Sequence record: MT446392.1
DNA from: Escherichia virus TH15
Reading direction: 5' to 3' (one strand)
Length of the DNA stretch: 64,000 nucleotides
In this document: positions 14,617 to 25,514 of the stretch, piece after piece
Layout of the letters: every line of letters begins with the position of its first letter
Numbering within the stretch: the stretch's first letter is position 1
Made by a program: the position numbers and the translations under genes
The notes under the pieces: model-generated
Databases searched by the model: none
The model's input: the letters and a program-made list of their open reading frames with translations, nothing else
Told to the model about the DNA's origin: nothing

Positions 14617-14892
14617 ATGACTAAATTTGAAATCGTTTCTGAAATTGTTACCGTTACTTCAATTTTGATTAAAACCGACCGGGAAGATATTACGATGAAG
14701 CGTGATGTGTTTATCGCGTTTTTGAATGAGTTGGGATTGAGGAATGAGAATGGGAATGAGTTAAACAATGTATCGTTTAACAAGTTGTTTAAAAGTTTAT
14801 CTGAAGATGAAATTGAACAAATCATTGAACAATTTAACGAAGGATTCGAAGATATACACCGATATCTGATGATGTATACCTCCGGATTCTAA
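14617..14892 (+). CDS. asiA: Anti-sigma70 factor AsiA
   Basis: 91 aa; EIVTVTSILIK, FIAFLNELG and FNEGFEDIHRYLMMYT match remembered T4 AsiA. Confidence 0.85.
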   Translation: MTKFEIVSEIVTVTSILIKTDREDITMKRDVFIAFLNELGLRNENGNELNNVSFNKLFKSLSEDEIEQIIEQFNEGFEDIHRYLMMYTSGF

Positions 14893-15542
14893 CGTGTACG
14901 CCCGAGCGTACGACCTGCTTGTCCACACATAGCAGAAAGTCTATCAAAACCAAGGTCTGGTTTCTGAACGTACCAATACAAAGAAACTGTACCTGCGTAA
15001 ACGTTCTCTAGATTAAAGAATGGGCAGCTGAACATATATGCGAAGCTGCTTTTTTTCTTTGTTGGTAAGAATACAAATTCATTACTGGATTCAAAATAAT
15101 TACCATTAACCCCCGCCAAATATTCCGCTGAAGTCTTATCTATTGGAAACCCACCCAAATTTTTCTCGTCAACTGTATCAGGCAATCTCCCTTCGTATCC
15201 AACCATATCCACAAAGTAATTAAGGTTAGTTGGTCTGAAGGAATAAATGGCTGTAAAGTCAGCTCCACTTGATGAATGGACTATCTGGATTTGCTCGATA
15301 GCTGCAATTTTAAATCTGTTGTCCTGGTCTTGCCTTATCATTTCAGTGTACGAGGCATATGAAGCATCCCTGTATGCATCTAAAATTGCATCACCTTTAT
15401 ACCAGATTACCGCCATTAAAAATAATAGAACAATAACTAGTACCCGGGAAAAGACAACTTTCCCGGTCGCATTATCTTTAAAAATTCTATCAAGAAGTCC
15501 AAAAAGTAGGTCGGGGATTGAGATTCCTACTTTTGGTTCCAT
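14889..15542 (-). CDS. t: Holin T
   Basis: 217 aa; DLLFGLLDRIFKDNATGKV, SGADFTAIYSFRPTNLNYFVD and YMFSCPFFNLENVYAGT match remembered T4 holin. Confidence 0.9.
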   Translation of the reverse strand: MEPKVGISIPDLLFGLLDRIFKDNATGKVVFSRVLVIVLLFLMAVIWYKGDAILDAYRDASYASYTEMIRQDQDNRFKIAAIEQIQIVHSSSGADFTAIYSFRPTNLNYFVDMVGYEGRLPDTVDEKNLGGFPIDKTSAEYLAGVNGNYFESSNEFVFLPTKKKSSFAYMFSCPFFNLENVYAGTVSLYWYVQKPDLGFDRLSAMCGQAGRTLGRTR

Positions 15543-15560: not shown

Positions 15561-15568
15561 TATTTATA
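15561..15568 (-). promoter_or_regulatory. Late promoter TATAAATA for holin t
   Basis: Minus-strand TATAAATA 18 nt upstream of the t start, followed by AGGAG. Confidence 0.55.
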
Positions 15569-15579
15569 GCGCAAAAGTA

Positions 15580-16380
15580 TTATAGCCATGGTCCATAGAT
15601 AGTACCTGTTGCTCCCCACATCGGGGATGACACTGCAACAGCTGCACCAGAACCGCCGCCGTCACCTCTTTTAAGGACAGAACCACCGTCGGACCATGCG
15701 TTTTGACCTGCGCCGCCAGCATCACCACCTCGTCCTGAGTGGGCGTTACCGTAATCATATCCGCCACCTGGGCTTTCATAAGAAGCGCCACCGCCAGAAG
15801 AACCGCCCCCACCGCCGGGGCCGAATGGTCTTCCGCCGCCGCCGCCAATATCCTGCCAGTTGGCACCAGAGTGTACTCGATAGGCAATGCCGCCACCGCC
15901 ACCGCCGCCACCGCAGATAACACCATAGTTCCAAATACGGAGTCTATGTCCTATATGGTTAACAATACAATCACCACCCCATTGCCCGTTGCCGTCACCG
16001 CCGGAGTGTGTCCAACCACCTTGCCCACCGCGTCCCCACATGTGAACTCCACCATGAATATTCAAAGTAACATATTCGTTAGGAGTATCTCCATTCATAA
16101 AGAATAACGGAACATCACGGGTATAAGATACTAAATCACCTGTGATATTAAACACTATAGGAGCACCACCGGCTTCAAAACAACGGTCACGGAACCATTG
16201 ACCATTAAAGTTATGGTCAGCTCCAAGCGTATGAATAATCTCACGAGAACGACCCGCGAATTGTGACATCCATGAAGGGTTTCCTAAACGAAGTTCCCTC
16301 GAAGCGGCCGACATCCATCTTTGCCCGGTTTCAGCGACGGCTGAAGTCCCAATCCAACCAGGAATTCCTACTACTGCCAT
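15580..16380 (-). CDS. 38: Tail-fibre adhesin gp38 (T2/S16-type, glycine-rich receptor-binding domain)
   Basis: 266 aa directly downstream of gene 37; repeated poly-Gly blocks separated by short variable segments. Confidence 0.75.
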
Positions 16381-16391
16381 ATAAACCTCCA

Positions 16392-16415
16392 GGGCCCGAA
16401 GGCCCTTTTATTATT
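16392..16415 (+). terminator. Plus-strand-oriented intrinsic terminator inside the minus-strand late operon (between 37 and 38)
   Basis: gggcccgaaggccc followed by ttttattatttt on the plus strand; the opposite strand lacks a U-run. Confidence 0.5.
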
Positions 16416-19400
16416 TTATCAATGATTTAATTAATGCTTTCAATTCAGCAATTTCAGATTTCAATTCCTTGATTTCGTCAGTATGCTCGTTGATAGTAGC
16501 AGTATTTAAACCGATAATACCGTTATAGTTTAAACGAAGTAAGCCGGTCTCTTTATCTTCAGAAACAAGTTCAGGCAATATTTCTTGAACTTCTTGAGCA
16601 ATTAAACCTGCAGATGGTTTAACTTCGTCTGTAACAGAGTTTTTAAGCAGATAAGTATAACCACCTAAGAGTTTAGATTTCTCTTGAGCGTTATCGATAA
16701 GCTTAATTTCCGACTTACAACGAATATCAGAACGGATATAAACGTCGTTAACGTCGATATTATCACGAACATACATACCAGCGTTAACGTTAAGGGCGAC
16801 GTTGCCGAATGTCTGAGCAAGCCCAGCACGGAAACTGAATACACCTTGGCCATTAGCATACGCGTTGAAAATACCGTCTGCTTCCCATACCAATCCAGTG
16901 TCGTTATCACCAATAACAATACAAGGGCCCGTCCATACCGGGTCACCGCCACCTGCTGATACTCTGTTGCTCTTAAGTAGGCTAGGGGCATAAAAAGTAC
17001 CGTTACTGTGGAATTCATAGATGGCTTGTGGGTCTGAACCGTTTTCCTGGTTGCCTACACGGATAATACCTTGTGCCCATGTATTAGTGATACGGCGCAT
17101 ACCAAAATCTACACCAGATACATAACCTTCATTAGTAATACCAGATCTTCCTTTAATAATAGGATAATAACTATCATTACCGACATTACCAAAATCCACA
17201 AACACAGGAGCTTCTTGACGCCATTGGTTTATCCAATCGCCAGCCTGGTGCGCAGCCCATTGCGAACCCTTTATATAAAGACGGTCCCTATTAAAATAAA
17301 AAGTATCCGACCCTTGAGGAGCTAAAGCAATTTCCCCACTATTATGAATATTAACGCCTGAATTGGTTCTGAAACTATAAAACGATAGAGCATTATCGGC
17401 GCCACCATTACCTACATACCAGTTATCAACGCCTGCTTTTTGTCCTTTCACATAACCAGATTCGGTTGCAGCACTGTTAATAACAATAGCATCCGAGTTG
17501 GCATTAATAGTTAAGCGACCAGTCATCGTATCGCCTTCTTTAGCCACACGGGAGGCAATAGCATCGCGAATATTTGTAGTGTCTCCTGCTGAAGTGAACG
17601 TTTTCCAGATATCAGAGAAGATGTTACCATTTTTAGCAATAGTAGCTTCGCCGCCCCCAACTTGCACGTTATCCGGGAAGTTAACTGTACCATCAGCATT
17701 AAATCTTGAGGTATGGGCTTGTGAACCATCTTCTTTCAAATGATGTAAAACAAATGTACCTGAATTAATTTCAGTACCCAAAGACCAGACAGCTTTACCA
17801 TTTAAAAACTTCTGTTTAACAATAGGATAATATTTGCTTACAGCATCATCATCAATTTCCTGGAAAATAGGAGCAGCTTGTGAATACTGAATATCATAAC
17901 CACCAGCACCCGCACCGTGTCCACCAAATTTAATAAAACCATTTTCAGCAAAAGTTGTATGGCTCAAATCCAGGTCCGGAATAACCACCTTACCGGTATC
18001 TAAAGCCAAACTAAACGGGCGAAGTGGACCGATGTCCCCAGTTTTACCTTCACCAAAGGCGGTAGGAATAATATGAAGACTTCCTTCTGAACGACGGAAA
18101 ATAGCGGCGTAATCGTCGTTCCAAATTCTAAGAGCATTGACCGCATTACCAGCAATAGTGCCGGAGACGTTAACTTCCTGACCGACATTTATACTTTCGT
18201 TTACGCCCAAAGTTCCATTTAAATGACTTTGAATAGCACCTGAAGACAGACGTTGATAATATTGAATCCAGCTAGTTGCATCAGATATTTCCATTACGTT
18301 TTTACGGTCGCCATCAACATTAGTAAAGGTATTACCCCAAACGGCGATAGTCATATTATCAACTGAACTACTTCCTGTAGTATTTCCTCTAAACATTAGT
18401 GTAGAAGCATTGTTGCGGCCGTCGATATTAACCGAACCGCCGATAACATTAATATCACCTGGGGTAACTAACAACCCACCAGCGGTGTTAACGTTTGTAG
18501 TGCCTTTACCACGGAAATAGTGGTGATAATTACCACCTTGATAATATCCTAAAAGGGTTTGACCGTCGCCGTATGCGTTATTATCGTGGTAGGTAACTAC
18601 AGTTGCCAGGGCATAGTTTTCTGCCGGTGGCGTTGTCATAAGAACCCCATCTGGAGAATATCCCATTACCATTTTTCTAAGGCTTTGGGTTTCTTCTGGG
18701 CCATAGATGAAAGTTCTTATGCCGTTGTTTACTGTATGGAAATATCCATCTTGGTGCCATTTTAAGCCTGTATCATTATCACCAAGGGCAATTGAAGCTG
18801 TTCCTAATTCGGAATATCCTTTAGGACCGTGTGGAAGACCTACAGAAACAGAATGACCCGCTTTCAACCCACCAGACCAAGTAAACGACCAAAGATATGC
18901 CTCTAATCCGTCGCCAGCATACCAGGTTATCCCATCATTGTCTTTAACCTCATGGAATATGCCAGCGCCTACAGCATTTCTCATAACACGAAGATGGTTA
19001 ATTGCTGTTTCGCTTTCGGTTAAAGGAGCATTATCAGCCATTGAATAGATGTCATAATCACCCGCCTTCTTGCCGTTGGTAATAACTTTATCGGTCAGAA
19101 TTTGTGGCGAAGAAATAGATTTCCACGCTGATACCTCAGGAGCTGTGAAAAGACCATTACCTGAAAACGCGTAAGTGCTTTCACTTCCTGCAGCGTAATC
19201 TTGGACGCGAATATTAACTACTTGATTGGTAAGACCTGCATTATTTGGCGAAAAGATAATACCGCGTTCTCGGTCATCGCCATCAAAGAAACGAAGGTGA
19301 GAAGTTGAGGCGCTCTTAGAAATCAGTTCGCCGCCTTCAGTCATTATCTGACCTGCAGCAATAATATCGCGAGTTACACGAGCAATTCCGGTTAAATTAA

Positions 19401-19656
19401 AATTACCTGTCTGAGTGAAGGTGCCATTGAGGGTATAATCGCCCGTTTGGTTGTAATTGCCTTTATGGATAACGTTACCATCAATATTGCCACCCTTAGC
19501 AAAACCAAGGTCAATAATAGCTCCGGTATCATCCTTTGTGAATAACAAGCGGTCTTTCAAGTTAATTGCGAGTTCACCTTCAGCCAATACAGTTGGGGTT
19601 GGGCGGACACCAGCAATTTTACTTCTTTTAAATTGTATTTGTTTTAAAGTAGCCAT
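16411..19656 (-). CDS. 37: Long tail fibre distal subunit gp37 with C-terminal intramolecular-chaperone-like domain
   Basis: 1081 aa, position between 36 and 38; C-terminus DIRCKSEIKLI...GLIAQEVQEILPELV plus coiled coil resembles S74-type auto-cleaving chaperone domains. Confidence 0.85.
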   Translation of the reverse strand: MATLKQIQFKRSKIAGVRPTPTVLAEGELAINLKDRLLFTKDDTGAIIDLGFAKGGNIDGNVIHKGNYNQTGDYTLNGTFTQTGNFNLTGIARVTRDIIAAGQIMTEGGELISKSASTSHLRFFDGDDRERGIIFSPNNAGLTNQVVNIRVQDYAAGSESTYAFSGNGLFTAPEVSAWKSISSPQILTDKVITNGKKAGDYDIYSMADNAPLTESETAINHLRVMRNAVGAGIFHEVKDNDGITWYAGDGLEAYLWSFTWSGGLKAGHSVSVGLPHGPKGYSELGTASIALGDNDTGLKWHQDGYFHTVNNGIRTFIYGPEETQSLRKMVMGYSPDGVLMTTPPAENYALATVVTYHDNNAYGDGQTLLGYYQGGNYHHYFRGKGTTNVNTAGGLLVTPGDINVIGGSVNIDGRNNASTLMFRGNTTGSSSVDNMTIAVWGNTFTNVDGDRKNVMEISDATSWIQYYQRLSSGAIQSHLNGTLGVNESINVGQEVNVSGTIAGNAVNALRIWNDDYAAIFRRSEGSLHIIPTAFGEGKTGDIGPLRPFSLALDTGKVVIPDLDLSHTTFAENGFIKFGGHGAGAGGYDIQYSQAAPIFQEIDDDAVSKYYPIVKQKFLNGKAVWSLGTEINSGTFVLHHLKEDGSQAHTSRFNADGTVNFPDNVQVGGGEATIAKNGNIFSDIWKTFTSAGDTTNIRDAIASRVAKEGDTMTGRLTINANSDAIVINSAATESGYVKGQKAGVDNWYVGNGGADNALSFYSFRTNSGVNIHNSGEIALAPQGSDTFYFNRDRLYIKGSQWAAHQAGDWINQWRQEAPVFVDFGNVGNDSYYPIIKGRSGITNEGYVSGVDFGMRRITNTWAQGIIRVGNQENGSDPQAIYEFHSNGTFYAPSLLKSNRVSAGGGDPVWTGPCIVIGDNDTGLVWEADGIFNAYANGQGVFSFRAGLAQTFGNVALNVNAGMYVRDNIDVNDVYIRSDIRCKSEIKLIDNAQEKSKLLGGYTYLLKNSVTDEVKPSAGLIAQEVQEILPELVSEDKETGLLRLNYNGIIGLNTATINEHTDEIKELKSEIAELKALIKSLIK

Positions 19657-19664
19657 AATGCCTC

Positions 19665-20312
19665 TTAATAATATCCAAAGTCTTGTACGGAGTCTTTAAG
19701 AACGATTTGGTCAAAACGAGGCACGTGAGCCGGGTCTGATGCAGGGTTCCTAGAGAAAAAATTGGGCGCTGACAAGTTTCCTGTCATTGATTGTAATGTA
19801 CTATTATTTAGTTCTACCTGTTGCTGGTTAGTTACATTACCAAGACCAACTTGAGCTTTCGACGGAGTGTTCCCTGGGGAAAATACACGACCCGAATCAT
19901 CATAAACTTGACGAGCCAGCGTATCACCCATAACAGTAAAACGTTTTGCTCCTGTTGTTGTATCGGGGTCAAAAATAATAAATGGTGTTCCTACTTCAGT
20001 TTCAAATCCAAACGGACCTTTTATACGGAATGAAGCCGTAAACGGTGCACCACCAGTTCTTGCTCCCAACTTAATTCCATAACCATTTGAATCGTTAAAT
20101 GTCAGACCTTGTTCGAAATATACGTTTGCTTTATAATTACCACCAAGAGCCTTTGAAACGAAATCGTTATCTACTGCCTGTGGCTTATTATATTCGGAAT
20201 AAATTTTATAAGTTTTGTAATATACATCATTACTAACTGGTGTTAAAGGGAAATTACCCTGATGCCAAAGGACTGAACCTCCAGCGGTTGAACCTAATTT
20301 TAAATCAGCCAT
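19665..20312 (-). CDS. 36: Long tail fibre distal connector gp36
   Basis: 215 aa versus T4 221 aa; synteny between 35 and 37; late promoter upstream. Confidence 0.75.
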   Translation of the reverse strand: MADLKLGSTAGGSVLWHQGNFPLTPVSNDVYYKTYKIYSEYNKPQAVDNDFVSKALGGNYKANVYFEQGLTFNDSNGYGIKLGARTGGAPFTASFRIKGPFGFETEVGTPFIIFDPDTTTGAKRFTVMGDTLARQVYDDSGRVFSPGNTPSKAQVGLGNVTNQQQVELNNSTLQSMTGNLSAPNFFSRNPASDPAHVPRFDQIVLKDSVQDFGYY

Positions 20313-20348: not shown

Positions 20349-20356
20349 TATTTATA
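20349..20356 (-). promoter_or_regulatory. Late promoter TATAAATA for genes 36-37
   Basis: Minus-strand TATAAATA immediately after the gene 35 terminator. Confidence 0.55.
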
Positions 20357-20382
20357 ACGAAAAAAGGACCCGAAGGTCCTTA
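20357..20382 (-). terminator. Intrinsic terminator downstream of gene 35
   Basis: Minus-strand reading: aggaccttcgggtccttttttcg. Confidence 0.65.
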
Positions 20383-21510
20383 TTGTTTTTCTCGAAGTTC
20401 GGCTGCATAAATCTTGCCTGCACGTGGAGCTTGTGCATCCGGGAATGTTACAATTGTATTGCCTGTATTTGTTGCATCGTTTGCATATGACATCCTTATG
20501 CCGTTGACACCAAATTCAGCTGGTTTGAAAGCAGAGTCACCTCTAGTTATCTCACCAATAACAATATTACGTATTGACCCAGTTCCGGTAGCTACAGTCC
20601 TTGATGTTACTACTGTAAAACCATCGGCACCTGCTGGAATCTCGACATATCTTTCAAAACTCGCCCATGCACCAGCTGGAACGTTTGTTGCAATATCGAT
20701 GTTTGTATTTGATATAGGAGAAGTGCTAGGGCTTTTAAAGAATCGAACCGAAGTCCTTACAGTCCCGGCAGCTTTCAGAGCAGCATCAAATGACATCTGA
20801 AACTTCAAGTAAAGCACATCCAAAGGCAAAAGGTTGTAGCCAGCCATAGGAGTCACCAGGTCCTCTCTAGGGAACCTTTTAATTGTGGTTGGTGTTCCAT
20901 CACCTGTTGATGAATACGTGCTCTCGTCTTCCGTTATGCGCACAGGATAGCCTGTTGCTCCTATATCACTAAAGGTATCATAAACAACTTCTAATGGGGT
21001 GGATACATCTTCAACAAATTTGCCATCGTTATATTTTACATGCTCGGAGACGATTACATTTCGACCAGAGATATAGAATGCCGAGTAAGATGTGTCAACT
21101 TTGTCGATTAACCATTTCTCAGGGAATGCTTTTGACCCCTTTAATCGCATCCAGTCAATTAATGTCTGTGAAGCATTTAGCTTACCGGAAGAAATAAATG
21201 CAATTAATCTTCCGGCTGGAACAGATTCCACAAAGGTAATTAATGCCTGACTGATTGCATCGTGTGTGCTGGTTAATGAATAGTTTTTCGTGTTAACAAT
21301 TTTATTCGTAGTTGTATCAATTTCCAATAGAGTCAGACCATTACCGAAGGTAGTTGGCCCGATTCGTTCGTCTTGAAATTTGATATACGATTTCACCGTG
21401 GAAAGAGTACAGCTCCCTGCTATACTCATTTTAAATTTAACGGCATTATTTTCTGATATAACTGGCGTTTGGACATATCCTTGTCCAAACTCTGCCATAA
21501 ATTTTTCCAT
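20380..21510 (-). CDS. 35: Long tail fibre hinge protein gp35
   Basis: 376 aa versus T4 372 aa; synteny. Confidence 0.75.
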   Translation of the reverse strand: MEKFMAEFGQGYVQTPVISENNAVKFKMSIAGSCTLSTVKSYIKFQDERIGPTTFGNGLTLLEIDTTTNKIVNTKNYSLTSTHDAISQALITFVESVPAGRLIAFISSGKLNASQTLIDWMRLKGSKAFPEKWLIDKVDTSYSAFYISGRNVIVSEHVKYNDGKFVEDVSTPLEVVYDTFSDIGATGYPVRITEDESTYSSTGDGTPTTIKRFPREDLVTPMAGYNLLPLDVLYLKFQMSFDAALKAAGTVRTSVRFFKSPSTSPISNTNIDIATNVPAGAWASFERYVEIPAGADGFTVVTSRTVATGTGSIRNIVIGEITRGDSAFKPAEFGVNGIRMSYANDATNTGNTIVTFPDAQAPRAGKIYAAELREKQ

Positions 21511-21518
21511 ATTACCTC

Positions 21519-24500
21519 TTATTCAACCCATTCAAACTTAACGGATTTAGTGGTCGGGTCTGGGATGATACGCACGTTACCGATACGTAACCAATCAAGA
21601 ATGGTCAAGTTCCCCATTGTTGTGTTGTCAGCCGGTAATGCACCAACATCCTCTGCAGACGGAGGGTTATCCGCGGTGTAAACCATTGCGAAAGTCGTCC
21701 AGGCTGATTTATTTTTCTGCCATGTGCGAGTATAACGAATAGTACCACCGTTTAATCCAGTAGGATAGCAAACCCAATCTTGATAGCATGAATCCAGCGT
21801 ATTACCAAACTGAGTTAATGTACCAGGATATTTAATTTGTTTATCACGAACCGAATAGTCAAACCAAGTACCACGTAATTTCTGCCCAGACGTACCAAGA
21901 ACTTCATCGCCGAAAGAACCATCATCCAAACGATAACGAATAGCAGGAGAAGCAAAAGTTCCGTTTTCAGTTAACCAACCAGAGGCATTCCAAACTTCAT
22001 CAGTCACCCCAGCAGGTTTGGTTTGAACTGTATCAATGTTTACCTGACGTTTTAACTTCATTGTCCAATAACCAGGGAACTGACTGTAAGTCGGTTCATC
22101 ATTAATATCAACAGACCAGAAGCCAACAGTATCAGCAGTTGGGGCTTGTGCGATAAGACTTGGTTTCGTACCGAATACACGGACCGGAGCATTCACACGG
22201 AGCACACCAGACATTGTATCGCCCGCTTGGTTAACAAAGTTTCTATCAACAATCTCAACAGCGTTTTTCTCGGTCAGGACTTTAAATGCACCGCCACCAT
22301 TTGCTATGATATTACCAGCATCAAGAGTTTTGAGCACCAAATTCTGCGAGTTATCACCCAGGGCCAGAGTTGCACCAGAAGCTTCACCGGTCGTGGTTGC
22401 AATAGTACGACCGTTTAGAACGTAATTATTTTTGGCTTGAACATCGTTTCCGGCACTAAGGTTGTTCAATACAGCAACATTACCCGAGGCGGTGTTTAAT
22501 GTCAATACGTTAGTCGTATCACCAATAGTCATTGTCGTTCCGGTGGAAGGAGCAGTGATTTTCCACTTGTTGGTTCCATTAACAACATTCACAGTTCCGA
22601 ACGTCGAAGTGTCAGCCGTTACATCAGTAAACACTGCAGTGCTCGTTGATACAACCGGAGCAGAGATATTTGTCTGTTTGGTGAGAGTTAACACACCTTC
22701 AACAGTCTGAGCAATATCACGACGAATAAACTGGGTCGAGTCGAGACTATCAAGTTTTTCGGCATTAACAGCCATCGCATTTATCGGTAAGAAGTTTTGC
22801 AATACGCGGTTTAATTCATAAGGCGAAACTGCATAGCCAGATTTTACATAGTTAACCAGTTTACTTGGGTCTGGGGTATATGCACCATTCTCATATGTAA
22901 ATCCTGCACCAGTCGTTGTAGTTGCGGCCGAAGTAGCTGTACCAGAAGATAAACGAACAAATCCACGCAGTGTTTCAGATGCTTCCCAAGTTGTTTCTGT
23001 TTGTGCAATATATTTCAGCGCAGACGGACTGATGGCCAGGACTTTCGATGTACCGGCAGTTGCTTCTGCATTTGTCGCGATACGAACAATACCTTCGGCA
23101 TTTTCAGTGGCTTTTTTCGACATCAATTTAAGCGGAGTAACGATTGTTTTATCGTCAGTACCGGTATTAACTTCGCCCTGAGTTGCTAATCTTGCTGTAC
23201 CACGTTGAGTCTCATTTGCTTCAAGAATATTCAGGTTATAATGGTCCCAGAGCGTCCCTGTTTCTACTAAACCACTTAATGCATTAACAGAAGTACGAGC
23301 AGTATTATTAAATCTAGTTTTAACTTTTAATGGAGTTGAGATACGAGTATCATCAGTTCCAGTATCAAATTCTGATTGCGTAGCAATCTCGGCTATGCCG
23401 GTTAACGTTTCTGATGCTTTACGGTCATTTAACGTTTTAGGAGTCACGGCTCTGGTATAATCGGTTCCTGCATTTGTTTCTGTCTGAGTAGCAATTTCGA
23501 TTAAACCGATACGGGAATCAAGAGCTGTTTTACGATGCAACATCTCCGGAGTAACAACAGCGTTTGACCAGCCAGCTTGCGATGTACCTGCAATTACTTC
23601 ACTTTCAACGGCCAGAATAACTGCGCCCTGCTGAGTGTAAGTAGCTTTGTATTGGTCAAGAGCTTTCGGAGAAATTACCAGATTAGTGGTATTCTTATTA
23701 TAAACGTTTGTACCATTTAATTCACGCGAAGTAGCTGGAGTTGCACCAGTGGTCGGGACGTAAGTCACGATACCGGACAGCGATTCTGAGCCCTGACGCG
23801 CTTGCAGTTTCTTTGGAGTGATAATTGTGGTATCATCTACACCTGCATCAGTTTCTTGCTGTGTGGCGAGTTCTGCGAGCCCACGTCTCGTTTCTGTTGC
23901 CGTACGTTCATTGAGTTTTTTCGGAGAAATAATTACATCATCAACAAATGCAAAATCACTGTTCTGATTTACTTGGGCAGTTGTTGCGATTCTGGCAATG
24001 CCTCGTTGGTTTTCTTTAGCAACACGGTTAGCCAAAGTCTGAGGAGTAATTGCTAATTCTTTTTCTGGGTTATTTTCATGGTCAACGTTTGCCTGAGTCT
24101 GGTTTGCCAGAGCAATAACACCAAGACGAGCACGCGTGGAATCATTTAATGAGTCAACTCGCTCAACAGTCGGAACGTTTTGAGCAACAACCCAATAACT
24201 TGTTCCAGACAATTTATCTTCTGCATAAGACAATTCAATAACTGGAGTATAACTGATGTTACCATTAAAGGTCAATGAATCAACCAATACCCAAGTTGAA
24301 TCTGGTGGATACTCGGAGCGTTTAGGAAATTGCAACAATTTAATGTCAGATGCAATCTTATCACCAGCAGCAGCTCTTATATTAACAGTCTGTGATTTGC
24401 GGAGATAGTTCAGTGCAATTTTAACAATGTCACCTTGCAAAACATCCGTTGGCAAATCGATATTAATCGTCGCTGGAGTTGAGTTATCTTCACCAAATAC

Positions 24501-25475
24501 AATGACACTTTCGTTCGGTAAAAGTTTAACGTTATCACGAATAACGCGAAGACGAGTTTTAAAATCACCGTCCCAAACATACCAGAGTTTTTCGGCGGCA
24601 TTATAAACAAAGAAGCCATCGCCCGTGGTGCGGAATTCCATTTGATGCTGTCCAGCTTTACCAAGACTAGAACTGGAGTCAAAGGTTTCAACCATCAGGT
24701 GGAATGTTGGCCCCAGGCCATCGATATCAACAGATTTGACAATATCGCCCTGGTTTGCATACTTAGGAAGAATGAAAGTAATCGGTGCACCAGTTGTATA
24801 ACGACGCATAATAAAGTCGCCGGCTTGTGCATGGAAACGACCAGTTGATGGTTCTACTCTGATGCCACGTTCTTCGTTGCCAGCTTCCCAAAATTGCCAT
24901 AAGCGGTTTGAAAAGATAAGCATGTTATAAGAGAACGGTTTGGTAATTAAAACTTCTGAATACTGATTACCAAAACGAACAATCTTTTGGTTACCGCCGC
25001 CTGGTACGTTGCTTGACTGCACTTTAATTTCGTTGTAACCAACATTGCCGCCGATATCTTTAATAACGATGGTATCGCCATCGACCGGGTTTGTAGGCAA
25101 TGTAAATGTGGTAAAGCTTGCAGCAGAGTCAACTGCGATAAATTCACCCGAATTAAGCTGACGAGTCGGAGATGCAACAGTTTCCCATTTAGGGTCAGTA
25201 CGAGTTGCTAACCAATACTGAGGGGTAAATGCTCCTGCTGGAGCATCAATATCACGTTGAGCAACCCAAATACGGTTATCATTAATAACTGCGAAGTTCT
25301 TTTTGTATCCACGCGTTGCATCATATTGTTGAACTGTGTTTTCTTCTATAAAGAAATCTACGTTAACGCCGTCTGACAAAACTGAGTAATCAGCTTTCGC
25401 GACATTAATGACTTTCTCACCAGCGGCATCGAGACCGGATGTTGCTCTGAATGCTGGTTTTAAAATATCGGCCAT
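21519..25475 (-). CDS. 34: Long tail fibre proximal subunit gp34
   Basis: 1318 aa versus T4 1289 aa; repetitive beta-rich sequence; late promoter upstream; adjacent to rnh as in T4. Confidence 0.85.
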   Translation of the reverse strand: MADILKPAFRATSGLDAAGEKVINVAKADYSVLSDGVNVDFFIEENTVQQYDATRGYKKNFAVINDNRIWVAQRDIDAPAGAFTPQYWLATRTDPKWETVASPTRQLNSGEFIAVDSAASFTTFTLPTNPVDGDTIVIKDIGGNVGYNEIKVQSSNVPGGGNQKIVRFGNQYSEVLITKPFSYNMLIFSNRLWQFWEAGNEERGIRVEPSTGRFHAQAGDFIMRRYTTGAPITFILPKYANQGDIVKSVDIDGLGPTFHLMVETFDSSSSLGKAGQHQMEFRTTGDGFFVYNAAEKLWYVWDGDFKTRLRVIRDNVKLLPNESVIVFGEDNSTPATINIDLPTDVLQGDIVKIALNYLRKSQTVNIRAAAGDKIASDIKLLQFPKRSEYPPDSTWVLVDSLTFNGNISYTPVIELSYAEDKLSGTSYWVVAQNVPTVERVDSLNDSTRARLGVIALANQTQANVDHENNPEKELAITPQTLANRVAKENQRGIARIATTAQVNQNSDFAFVDDVIISPKKLNERTATETRRGLAELATQQETDAGVDDTTIITPKKLQARQGSESLSGIVTYVPTTGATPATSRELNGTNVYNKNTTNLVISPKALDQYKATYTQQGAVILAVESEVIAGTSQAGWSNAVVTPEMLHRKTALDSRIGLIEIATQTETNAGTDYTRAVTPKTLNDRKASETLTGIAEIATQSEFDTGTDDTRISTPLKVKTRFNNTARTSVNALSGLVETGTLWDHYNLNILEANETQRGTARLATQGEVNTGTDDKTIVTPLKLMSKKATENAEGIVRIATNAEATAGTSKVLAISPSALKYIAQTETTWEASETLRGFVRLSSGTATSAATTTTGAGFTYENGAYTPDPSKLVNYVKSGYAVSPYELNRVLQNFLPINAMAVNAEKLDSLDSTQFIRRDIAQTVEGVLTLTKQTNISAPVVSTSTAVFTDVTADTSTFGTVNVVNGTNKWKITAPSTGTTMTIGDTTNVLTLNTASGNVAVLNNLSAGNDVQAKNNYVLNGRTIATTTGEASGATLALGDNSQNLVLKTLDAGNIIANGGGAFKVLTEKNAVEIVDRNFVNQAGDTMSGVLRVNAPVRVFGTKPSLIAQAPTADTVGFWSVDINDEPTYSQFPGYWTMKLKRQVNIDTVQTKPAGVTDEVWNASGWLTENGTFASPAIRYRLDDGSFGDEVLGTSGQKLRGTWFDYSVRDKQIKYPGTLTQFGNTLDSCYQDWVCYPTGLNGGTIRYTRTWQKNKSAWTTFAMVYTADNPPSAEDVGALPADNTTMGNLTILDWLRIGNVRIIPDPTTKSVKFEWVE

Positions 25476-25506: not shown

Positions 25507-25514
25507 TATTTATA
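25507..25514 (-). promoter_or_regulatory. Late promoter TATAAATA for gene 34
   Basis: Minus-strand TATAAATA about 32 nt upstream of the gene 34 ATG. Confidence 0.55.

Follow-up and report, generated by a model that had tools for sequence, protein, structure and literature searches.

The region considered here lies in a 64,000-nucleotide (nt) stretch of DNA from Escherichia virus TH15 (record MT446392.1), referred to below in its entirety as the window, and consists of the tail-fibre genes 37 and 38 (g37 and g38, encoding gp37 and gp38). The window backbone is 93–95 % identical to Escherichia phages VR26 and RZ, and the window therefore belongs to a phage of the Tevenvirinae. Gene order follows the canonical T-even arrangement 34-35-36-37-38-t, with g36, g35 and g34 upstream of g37-g38 and t downstream. 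A 30-nt spacer separates g37 from g38, t follows g38 after 37 nt, and the g37-g38-t synteny is identical in VR26, JS98, ABTNLS3, UGJNEcP4, AV111 and LHE83. Very probably, g37 and g38 specify the tip with which a long tail fibre of the T2/T6/S16 type recognises its receptor, in a T-even (Tevenvirinae, VR26/JS98-like) phage. The features of the two genes, with lengths in amino acids (aa), are as follows; AF2 denotes AlphaFold2, pLDDT the predicted local distance difference test score and ORF an open reading frame.

16411..19656, minus strand: gene 37, long tail fibre distal subunit precursor, 1081 aa (ORF list; phrog_1699)
16732..19656, minus strand: predicted mature gp37, aa 1–975, ending in DVYIR975, the putative docking surface for gp38 (from the context of the predicted cleavage site)
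16714..16731, minus strand: catalytic motif S976-D-I-R-C-K981, Ser/Lys dyad (motif search, alignment of relatives)
16414..16731, minus strand: Peptidase S74, or intramolecular chaperone auto-cleaving (ICA), domain, aa 976–1081, 106 aa (PF13884, AF2, Foldseek)
16417..16527, minus strand: long C-terminal helix of the chaperone domain, aa ~1044–1080 (DSSP on the AF2 model, pLDDT 96–98)
15580..16380, minus strand: gene 38, tail-fibre tip adhesin, 266 aa (PF05268, PF21721, phrog_2056, 6f45_D, 9v85, AF2 model)
16246..16380, minus strand: gp38 N-terminal attachment domain, aa 1–45, three-helix bundle with W9, W22 and W37 (Gp38_N at aa 1–42; model)
15640..16041, minus strand: gp38 specificity domain, aa 114–247, glycine-rich motifs alternating with hypervariable segments (column entropy)

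An earlier reading of this DNA, made from the letters and their ORFs (the sequence-only reading), had proposed here a gp37 with a chaperone-like C-terminus followed by a glycine-rich gp38 adhesin. Both ORFs have exactly the coordinates given in that reading, and the two gp37 peptides that it quoted, DIRCKSEIKLI (beginning at aa 977) and GLIAQEVQEILPELV, are present.

gp37 matches phrog_1699 over its full length (E value 0), and a profile search bore out the chaperone-like C-terminus, returning Peptidase_S74 (PF13884, described in Pfam as 'chaperone of endosialidase') at aa 976–1031 (45.9 bits against a gathering cut-off of 22 bits, E value 7e-12, profile positions 1–57 of 58). The match starts exactly at the serine of the S976-D-I-R-C-K981 motif, with the catalytic Ser and Lys in place. 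An HMMER scan with gp37 aa 960–1081 against 1.84 billion representatives (E value ≤1e-3) returned 16,328 cluster representatives carrying the domain, nearly always at the C-terminus (median of 3 residues after the domain), and in gp37 the domain reaches the final residue of the protein. In the best 150 of these 16,328 proteins, which gave 152 aligned stretches, Ser976 was kept in 150 stretches and Asp977 and Lys981 in all 152; G999, G1017, A1020, Q1021 and P1028 were also conserved, and the last four, all invariant, are spanned by GLIAQEVQEILPELV.

A phmmer search of the PDB aligned the gp37 motif with (A)DLRAK in the ICA domain of MyRF (7DC3), in which S587 and K592 form the catalytic dyad, equivalent to S911/K916 of endoNF, with the cut N-terminal to the Ser and trimerisation driven by a triple coiled coil (PMC8326128). 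The AF2 model of gp37 aa 960–1081, built as a monomer (pLDDT 91.2), combines a small beta unit with a C-terminal helix of 37 residues (model residues 85–121 by DSSP), the helix corresponding to what the sequence-only reading had called a coiled coil. Foldseek matched this model to 7DC3 (template modelling (TM) score 0.72–0.74, probability 1.00) and to the endoNF (K1F) chaperone 3GW6 (probability 0.91–1.00). gp37 thus combines a profile match above the cut-off, a Ser-Lys dyad, a position at the extreme C-terminus and a fold of beta ring plus helix. It shares with endoNF and MyRF the S74 family, the S-x4-K spacing of the dyad, the position of the cut, predicted in gp37, N-terminal to Ser and the beta 'donut' with a long trimerising helix; however, sequence identity is only 12–24 %, and here the passenger is neither the enzyme of a tailspike nor a transcription factor but a tail-fibre beta-helix onto which a separate adhesin would later be loaded.

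Among solved structures, the tip of S16 gp37 (6F45_A, E value 4.7e-30) is closest to gp37 aa 912–1081, and the segment preceding the S74 domain is homologous to the trimeric beta-helix of S16 gp37. For S16, autocleavage at DLNVS^SDRRIKK is reported to remove the C-terminal 113 residues, and in the fPS phages a site is predicted at DVYIR^SDGRLKI (PMC7917993); processing of T2 gp37 was described in 1986 (Drexler et al., as cited in PMC3157838). Because gp37 here reads DVYIR-SDIRCK, sharing the DVYIR|SD context of the fPS phages and aligning with the S16 site, a cut is predicted between R975 and S976 that would release 106 residues. The module therefore resembles that of S16 in its S74 chaperone and SD-R-K cleavage motif, but differs in the length of the predicted fragment (106 against 113 aa) and in the predicted mature end of gp37 (DVYIR against DLNVS).

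A rival explanation is a degenerate, non-cleaving S74 remnant that stays on the fibre, and the two x positions of S-D-x-R-x-K do hold I and C, of which C is outside the six most frequent residues at that position. We consider such a remnant highly improbable, as all of the invariant positions (S976, D977, K981, G999, G1017, A1020, Q1021 and P1028) are intact, the domain is 94–99 % conserved in DNA among relatives (VR26, ABTNLS3 and JS98) while the neighbouring shaft falls to 44–60 %, and a retained domain would occupy the surface on which gp38 docks in the S16 model.

Within the gp37 shaft, aa 418–561 (window 17974–18405) are homologous to the proximal fibre protein gp34 (PDB 4UXE, 5NXF and 5NXH, E value ~1e-10), and this segment is a fibre-shaft module common to the distal and proximal half-fibres. 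Membership of the corresponding Pfam families is not claimed for gp37, the scores being below the cut-offs (Gp34_trimer, 20.7 bits against 27; gp37_trimer, 19.8 bits against 21.7).

gp38 returned matches to both adhesin families, GP38 (PF05268; 217.5 bits, E value 2.7e-64) and Gp38_N (PF21721; 73.2 bits, E value 1.6e-20), each with a cut-off of 25 bits, and to phrog_2056 'host specificity' over its full length (E value 4e-107). It aligns end to end with S16 gp38 (6F45_D, E value 1.5e-51) and with the receptor-binding domain of PP01 gp38 (9V85, E value 1.5e-61; identified as such in PMC12892980). The closest solved relatives of gp37 and gp38 are the two respective chains of 6F45, the crystallised gp37-gp38 complex of S16 (Dunne et al. 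2018), whose module has the same two genes in the same order. The AF2 model of gp38 (pLDDT 89.6) matched only two entries when searched with Foldseek against the whole PDB, 6F45_D (TM score 0.80/0.85) and 9V85 (TM score 0.72/0.85), and its predicted fold carries what appears to be a polyglycine sandwich of the S16 type.

The N-terminal helices of gp38 are modelled at residues 10–18, 23–29 and 38–41. In the alignment, W9, W22 and W37 coincide with the tryptophans that S16 gp38 inserts into gp37 as docking prongs (PMC6851490); across 91 gp38 homologues, conservation is 90 % or more at W9 and W22, and the majority carry Trp at the position of W37. Further along, glycine-rich motifs (GRMs) with column entropies of 0.35–1.1 bits in the same homologues alternate with hypervariable segments (HVSs; aa 122–131, 165–178, 194–204, 208–215 and 227–240) at 1.65–2.57 bits, an architecture published by Trojet et al. 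2011 (PMC3157838) and Dunne et al. 2018. Glycine makes up 26 % of gp38 overall, 37 % in aa 114–266 versus 12 % in aa 1–113, and occurs in runs of 8, 5, 5, 3, 3 and 3 residues. The 266-aa protein with poly-Gly blocks between variable segments was therefore read correctly from the sequence. Likenesses to S16 gp38 include the Trp prongs, the poly-Gly8 helix and the GRM/HVS layout; nevertheless, overall identity is only ~44 %, the HVS loops are unrelated (17 % to an S16-like allele) and S16 binds OmpC of Salmonella.

Because of these family matches, the alignments to S16 and PP01, the tryptophans, the GRM/HVS pattern and the three-domain fold, gp38, which lies between g37 and t, is assigned by sequence and model as an adhesin of the T2/T6/S16 kind rather than a T4-type chaperone, as the sequence-only reading had maintained. 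In T4, receptor binding is a property of gp37, and gp38 is a chaperone unrelated to the adhesins; neither feature is seen here, although the locus shares with T4 its genomic position, its gene names and a homologous gp37 N-terminus and shaft architecture with gp34-like repeats. Several database records do name homologues 'distal long tail fiber assembly catalyst', a legacy annotation derived from T4, which would fit a gp38 that leaves the fibre after assembly and a gp37 that contacts the receptor directly. This chaperone reading of gp38 is rejected on family, alignment and fold evidence and has very little probability in our view: the protein matches PF05268 and PF21721, aligns over its full length with an S16 gp38 that was crystallised bound to gp37, and folds like the S16 and PP01 adhesins only, while antiserum to the 89 %-identical gp38 of LHE83 blocks adsorption (PMC10987938). 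Moreover, gp37 ends in a removable S74 domain, and a T4-type needle tip was not found in a PDB search with gp37, which returned only S16 gp37 and gp34 chains. In phages T2 and T6 (Riede 1987; Drexler 1986; Trojet 2011), gp38 is likewise the fibre-tip adhesin and gp37 is processed at its C-terminus; the likeness extends to five classical GRMs with four HVSs and to recombination at or near conserved motifs.

Homologues of gp38 were present in 761 records of the phage collection, and the protein falls in a 37-member cluster at 90 % identity together with VR26, MX01 and ABTNLS3. Three ORFs lying within g38 (15564–15926, minus strand, 120 aa; 15739–16107, plus strand, 122 aa; 15696–15920, plus strand, 74 aa) were rejected as genes because runs of GGN codons, at a local GC content of up to 54 % (versus ~40 % elsewhere), leave alternative and antisense frames free of stops. 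One gp38 cluster (P0057) is labelled Bacillus cereus, probably through contamination. Beyond the window, P0080, a protein of 303 aa named 'tail fiber domain-containing protein' in an E. coli assembly, carries Peptidase_S74, Gp38_N and GP38 together; it joins the end of gp37 to gp38, probably as an artefact of gene calling or of read-through over the short spacer between the two genes.

The identity of the HVSs to those of other gp38s is bimodal, at 81–89 % for the class containing MX01, AV111, FL08 and AV119 versus 7–21 % for the T6 (Tsx), S16-like (OmpC) and UGJNEcP4 classes. For T6 gp38, for example, an overall identity of 61 % falls to 16 % in the HVSs. The sequence-only reading had suggested aligning the variable segments against phages of known receptor, and this alignment gave 84 % for FL08 and 86 % for AV119, both of which need OmpA (PMC12032242). 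The gp38s of the wider OmpA-type class (VR26, MX01, AV111, LHE83, FL08 and AV119) are 77–93 % identical to gp38 as proteins and have the same length and motif order. Within it, LHE83, whose gp38 is 89.1 % identical overall, is also experimentally OmpA-dependent: it selects ompA frameshift mutants (PMC10987938). Since the HVS class is shared with the OmpA-dependent FL08 and AV119 and identity to LHE83 gp38 is 89 %, OmpA is most probably the primary receptor of this phage.

Several points weigh against this picture of an OmpA-binding fibre tip. The receptor was assigned by homology only, and for this phage we infer the cleavage of gp37 and the presence of gp38 in the virion as well as the receptor; for close relatives, it has been demonstrated that gp38 is a virion protein through which the receptor is bound (PMC12032242, PMC10987938). 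LHE83 loses only ~50 % of its adsorption on BL21 delta-ompA (PMC10987938), a single HVS substitution (Q206L) is enough to switch a receptor from OmpF to OmpW (bioRxiv 10.64898/2026.04.02.716166), and the closest gp38s (93 % identity) include one from a Salmonella phage. Compared with its class, gp38 reaches no more than 84.7 % DNA identity in the specificity domain, where synonymous changes are numerous, and its N-terminal domain is nearer to another allele class. The 11–22 non-synonymous codon differences in the C-terminal domain could tune which OmpA loop variant is recognised.

If these assignments hold, gp37 would be made as a 1081-aa precursor whose last 106 residues act as an S74 chaperone driving trimerisation of the beta-helical fibre. 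After trimerisation, the Ser976/Lys981 dyad would cut between Arg975 and Ser976, the chaperone would leave and the DVYIR end of the trimer would be exposed. One copy of gp38 could then plug into this end through its three-helix bundle and Trp9, Trp22 and Trp37, and its polyglycine-II 'sandwich' would present the hypervariable loops to an outer-membrane protein, most probably OmpA.

Both genes are mosaic. Sliding-window DNA comparison revealed 96–100 % identity to VR26 in g36, the N-terminus of g37 and t, whereas the g37 shaft (~18400–17300) is 44–60 % identical to VR26 and 74–97 % identical to the Dhakavirus phages ABTNLS3 and JS98; on these identities, the shaft seems to have been exchanged between genera. 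When proteins are clustered at 90 % identity, the mosaic gp37 stands alone as a singleton. In the gp38 specificity domain, DNA identity is 78–87 % to VR26 and ABTNLS3 and 50–63 % to JS98. At the protein level, the N-terminal domain of gp38 is 97 % identical to that of UGJNEcP4, whose loops are only 19 % identical, while the specificity domain is 93 % identical to that of AV111, whose N-terminal domain is only 78 % identical; as the two domains have different closest relatives, recombination has taken place inside g38. At codon resolution, similarity to the UGJNEcP4/JS98 type (82–100 %) drops to 24–27 % just past the first glycine motif, and many megablast relatives lose similarity at window ~16025–16058. 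Because similarity collapses right after this motif, we place the putative crossover zone in the last long exact tract shared with that allele type:

16049..16083, minus strand: last long exact DNA tract with the UGJNEcP4-type allele, 35 nt, aa 100–111 (putative crossover zone)

In this phage, the fibre base is therefore of VR26 type and the gp37 shaft of Dhakavirus type, and gp38 joins an attachment domain of UGJNEcP4 type to a specificity domain of the OmpA class, with differences from characterised OmpA-class alleles at 11–22 codons. It is unlikely, in our estimation, that this combination gives a receptor or host profile that no single relative would lead one to expect. Were it so, OmpA variants of both Escherichia and Salmonella might be recognised, an example chosen because one of the two closest gp38s comes from a Salmonella phage; use of another porin via one of its HVS substitutions is an alternative example.

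The sequence-only reading had further proposed that the Gly-codon DNA repeats are recombination hotspots that set receptor specificity. The repeats are real but small: direct repeats in g38 measure 11–19 nt at 79–100 % identity, exact self-repeats only 11 nt and Tandem Repeats Finder (TRF) arrays only 17–19 nt; searching g38 for tandem and direct repeats turned up neither a more extensive repeat structure nor inverted repeats. Receptor specificity is determined by the hypervariable loops rather than by these repeats. As for hotspots, the intragenic mosaicism agrees with the proposal, but exact tracts of at least 11 nt between allele classes within the specificity domain are only 11–15 nt long, and the resolved crossover tract stops at aa 111, shortly before the first glycine motif.

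These data bear on a competing explanation, namely that the glycine motifs are conserved purely as polyglycine-II structure, that mosaicism arises by ordinary homologous recombination anywhere in the conserved flanks and that the Gly repeats are no special hotspots. The shortness of the shared tracts and self-repeats and the position of the crossover agree with it, as do the larger exchanges in the g37 shaft, which are far from any Gly run, and the excess of synonymous (44–67) over non-synonymous (11–22) codon differences in the specificity domain, which points to an old allele class under purifying selection. Yet the 11–15 nt tracts that do exist fall in glycine motifs or in the framework between them (MWGR, WNYG, CGGGGG and PGGG), and an engineered swap was resolved 'from HVS2 onwards' (bioRxiv 10.64898/2026.04.02.716166). 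We regard this purely structural explanation as a serious possibility, somewhat short of an even chance. Gly codons are not singled out as hotspots by our comparison; conservation of the glycine motifs comes mainly from their role as the polyglycine-II core, and the hotspot idea, published from 1996 to 2011, is weakly supported here because the Gly-codon repeats reach only 11–19 nt.

This module is ordinary textbook material, and the literature already covers it together with its structure, processing and modular evolution. Everything in the sequence-only interpretation had been published earlier (Drexler 1986; Trojet 2011, PMC3157838; Dunne 2018), including the recombination idea, for which Trojet 2011 cites Tetart 1996 and 1998; the exact gp37 and gp38 sequences are present in NCBI and in Logan. 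For discovery, the case carries little weight, although it shows that a reader with only the sequence can recognise a T2/S16-type host-range module. In practical terms, the annotation that it provides, with a cleavage site in gp37 predicted at R975|S976 and OmpA likely to be the primary receptor, is of use in phage cocktail design or adhesin swapping.

Around the two genes, the following neighbours and putative expression signals were located, the genes by PHROG/Pfam assignment:

21519-25475: g34
20380-21510: g35
19665-20312: g36
14889-15542: t holin
25507-25514, minus strand: T4 late-promoter motif TATAAATA upstream of g34 (motif match)
20349..20356, minus strand: T4 late-promoter motif TATAAATA upstream of g36 (motif match)
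15561-15568, minus strand: T4 late-promoter motif TATAAATA upstream of t (motif match)
16386..16406, minus strand: 37-38 spacer, with a GGGCC-UUCG-GGCCC hairpin at 16391-16406 and then a GGAGG ribosome-binding site at 16386-16390 (motif, folding)

The late-promoter motif TATAAATA occurs 10 times in the window against 4.4 expected, a count reached in 2 of 100 shuffles, and the window scan found none between g37 and g38. This arrangement suggests a g36-g37-g38 late transcript from the motif upstream of g36, from which the three genes would probably be co-transcribed, and, for the holin gene, a late start of its own. The GGAGG ribosome-binding site lies 5 nt before the g38 ATG. The spacer hairpin, with an unexceptional folding z-score of -1.04, is a candidate element only. 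Predicted sigma-70 promoters and terminators were not used, their counts being at chance level (16 versus 16.2 expected and 7 versus 5.0, respectively). Scans of the whole 64-kb window returned no tRNA genes and no Rfam family at the gathering threshold. A second UUCG-tetraloop hairpin (20364-20381, minus strand) follows the g35 stop and is succeeded by a U-run, giving it a terminator-like appearance. Finally, aa 57–127 of gp35 show a weak Pfam match to ILEI (interleukin-like EMT inducer/FAM3 fold; 26.1 bits against a cut-off of 27), and the same weak match is precomputed for an identical gp35 gene on a Logan contig.

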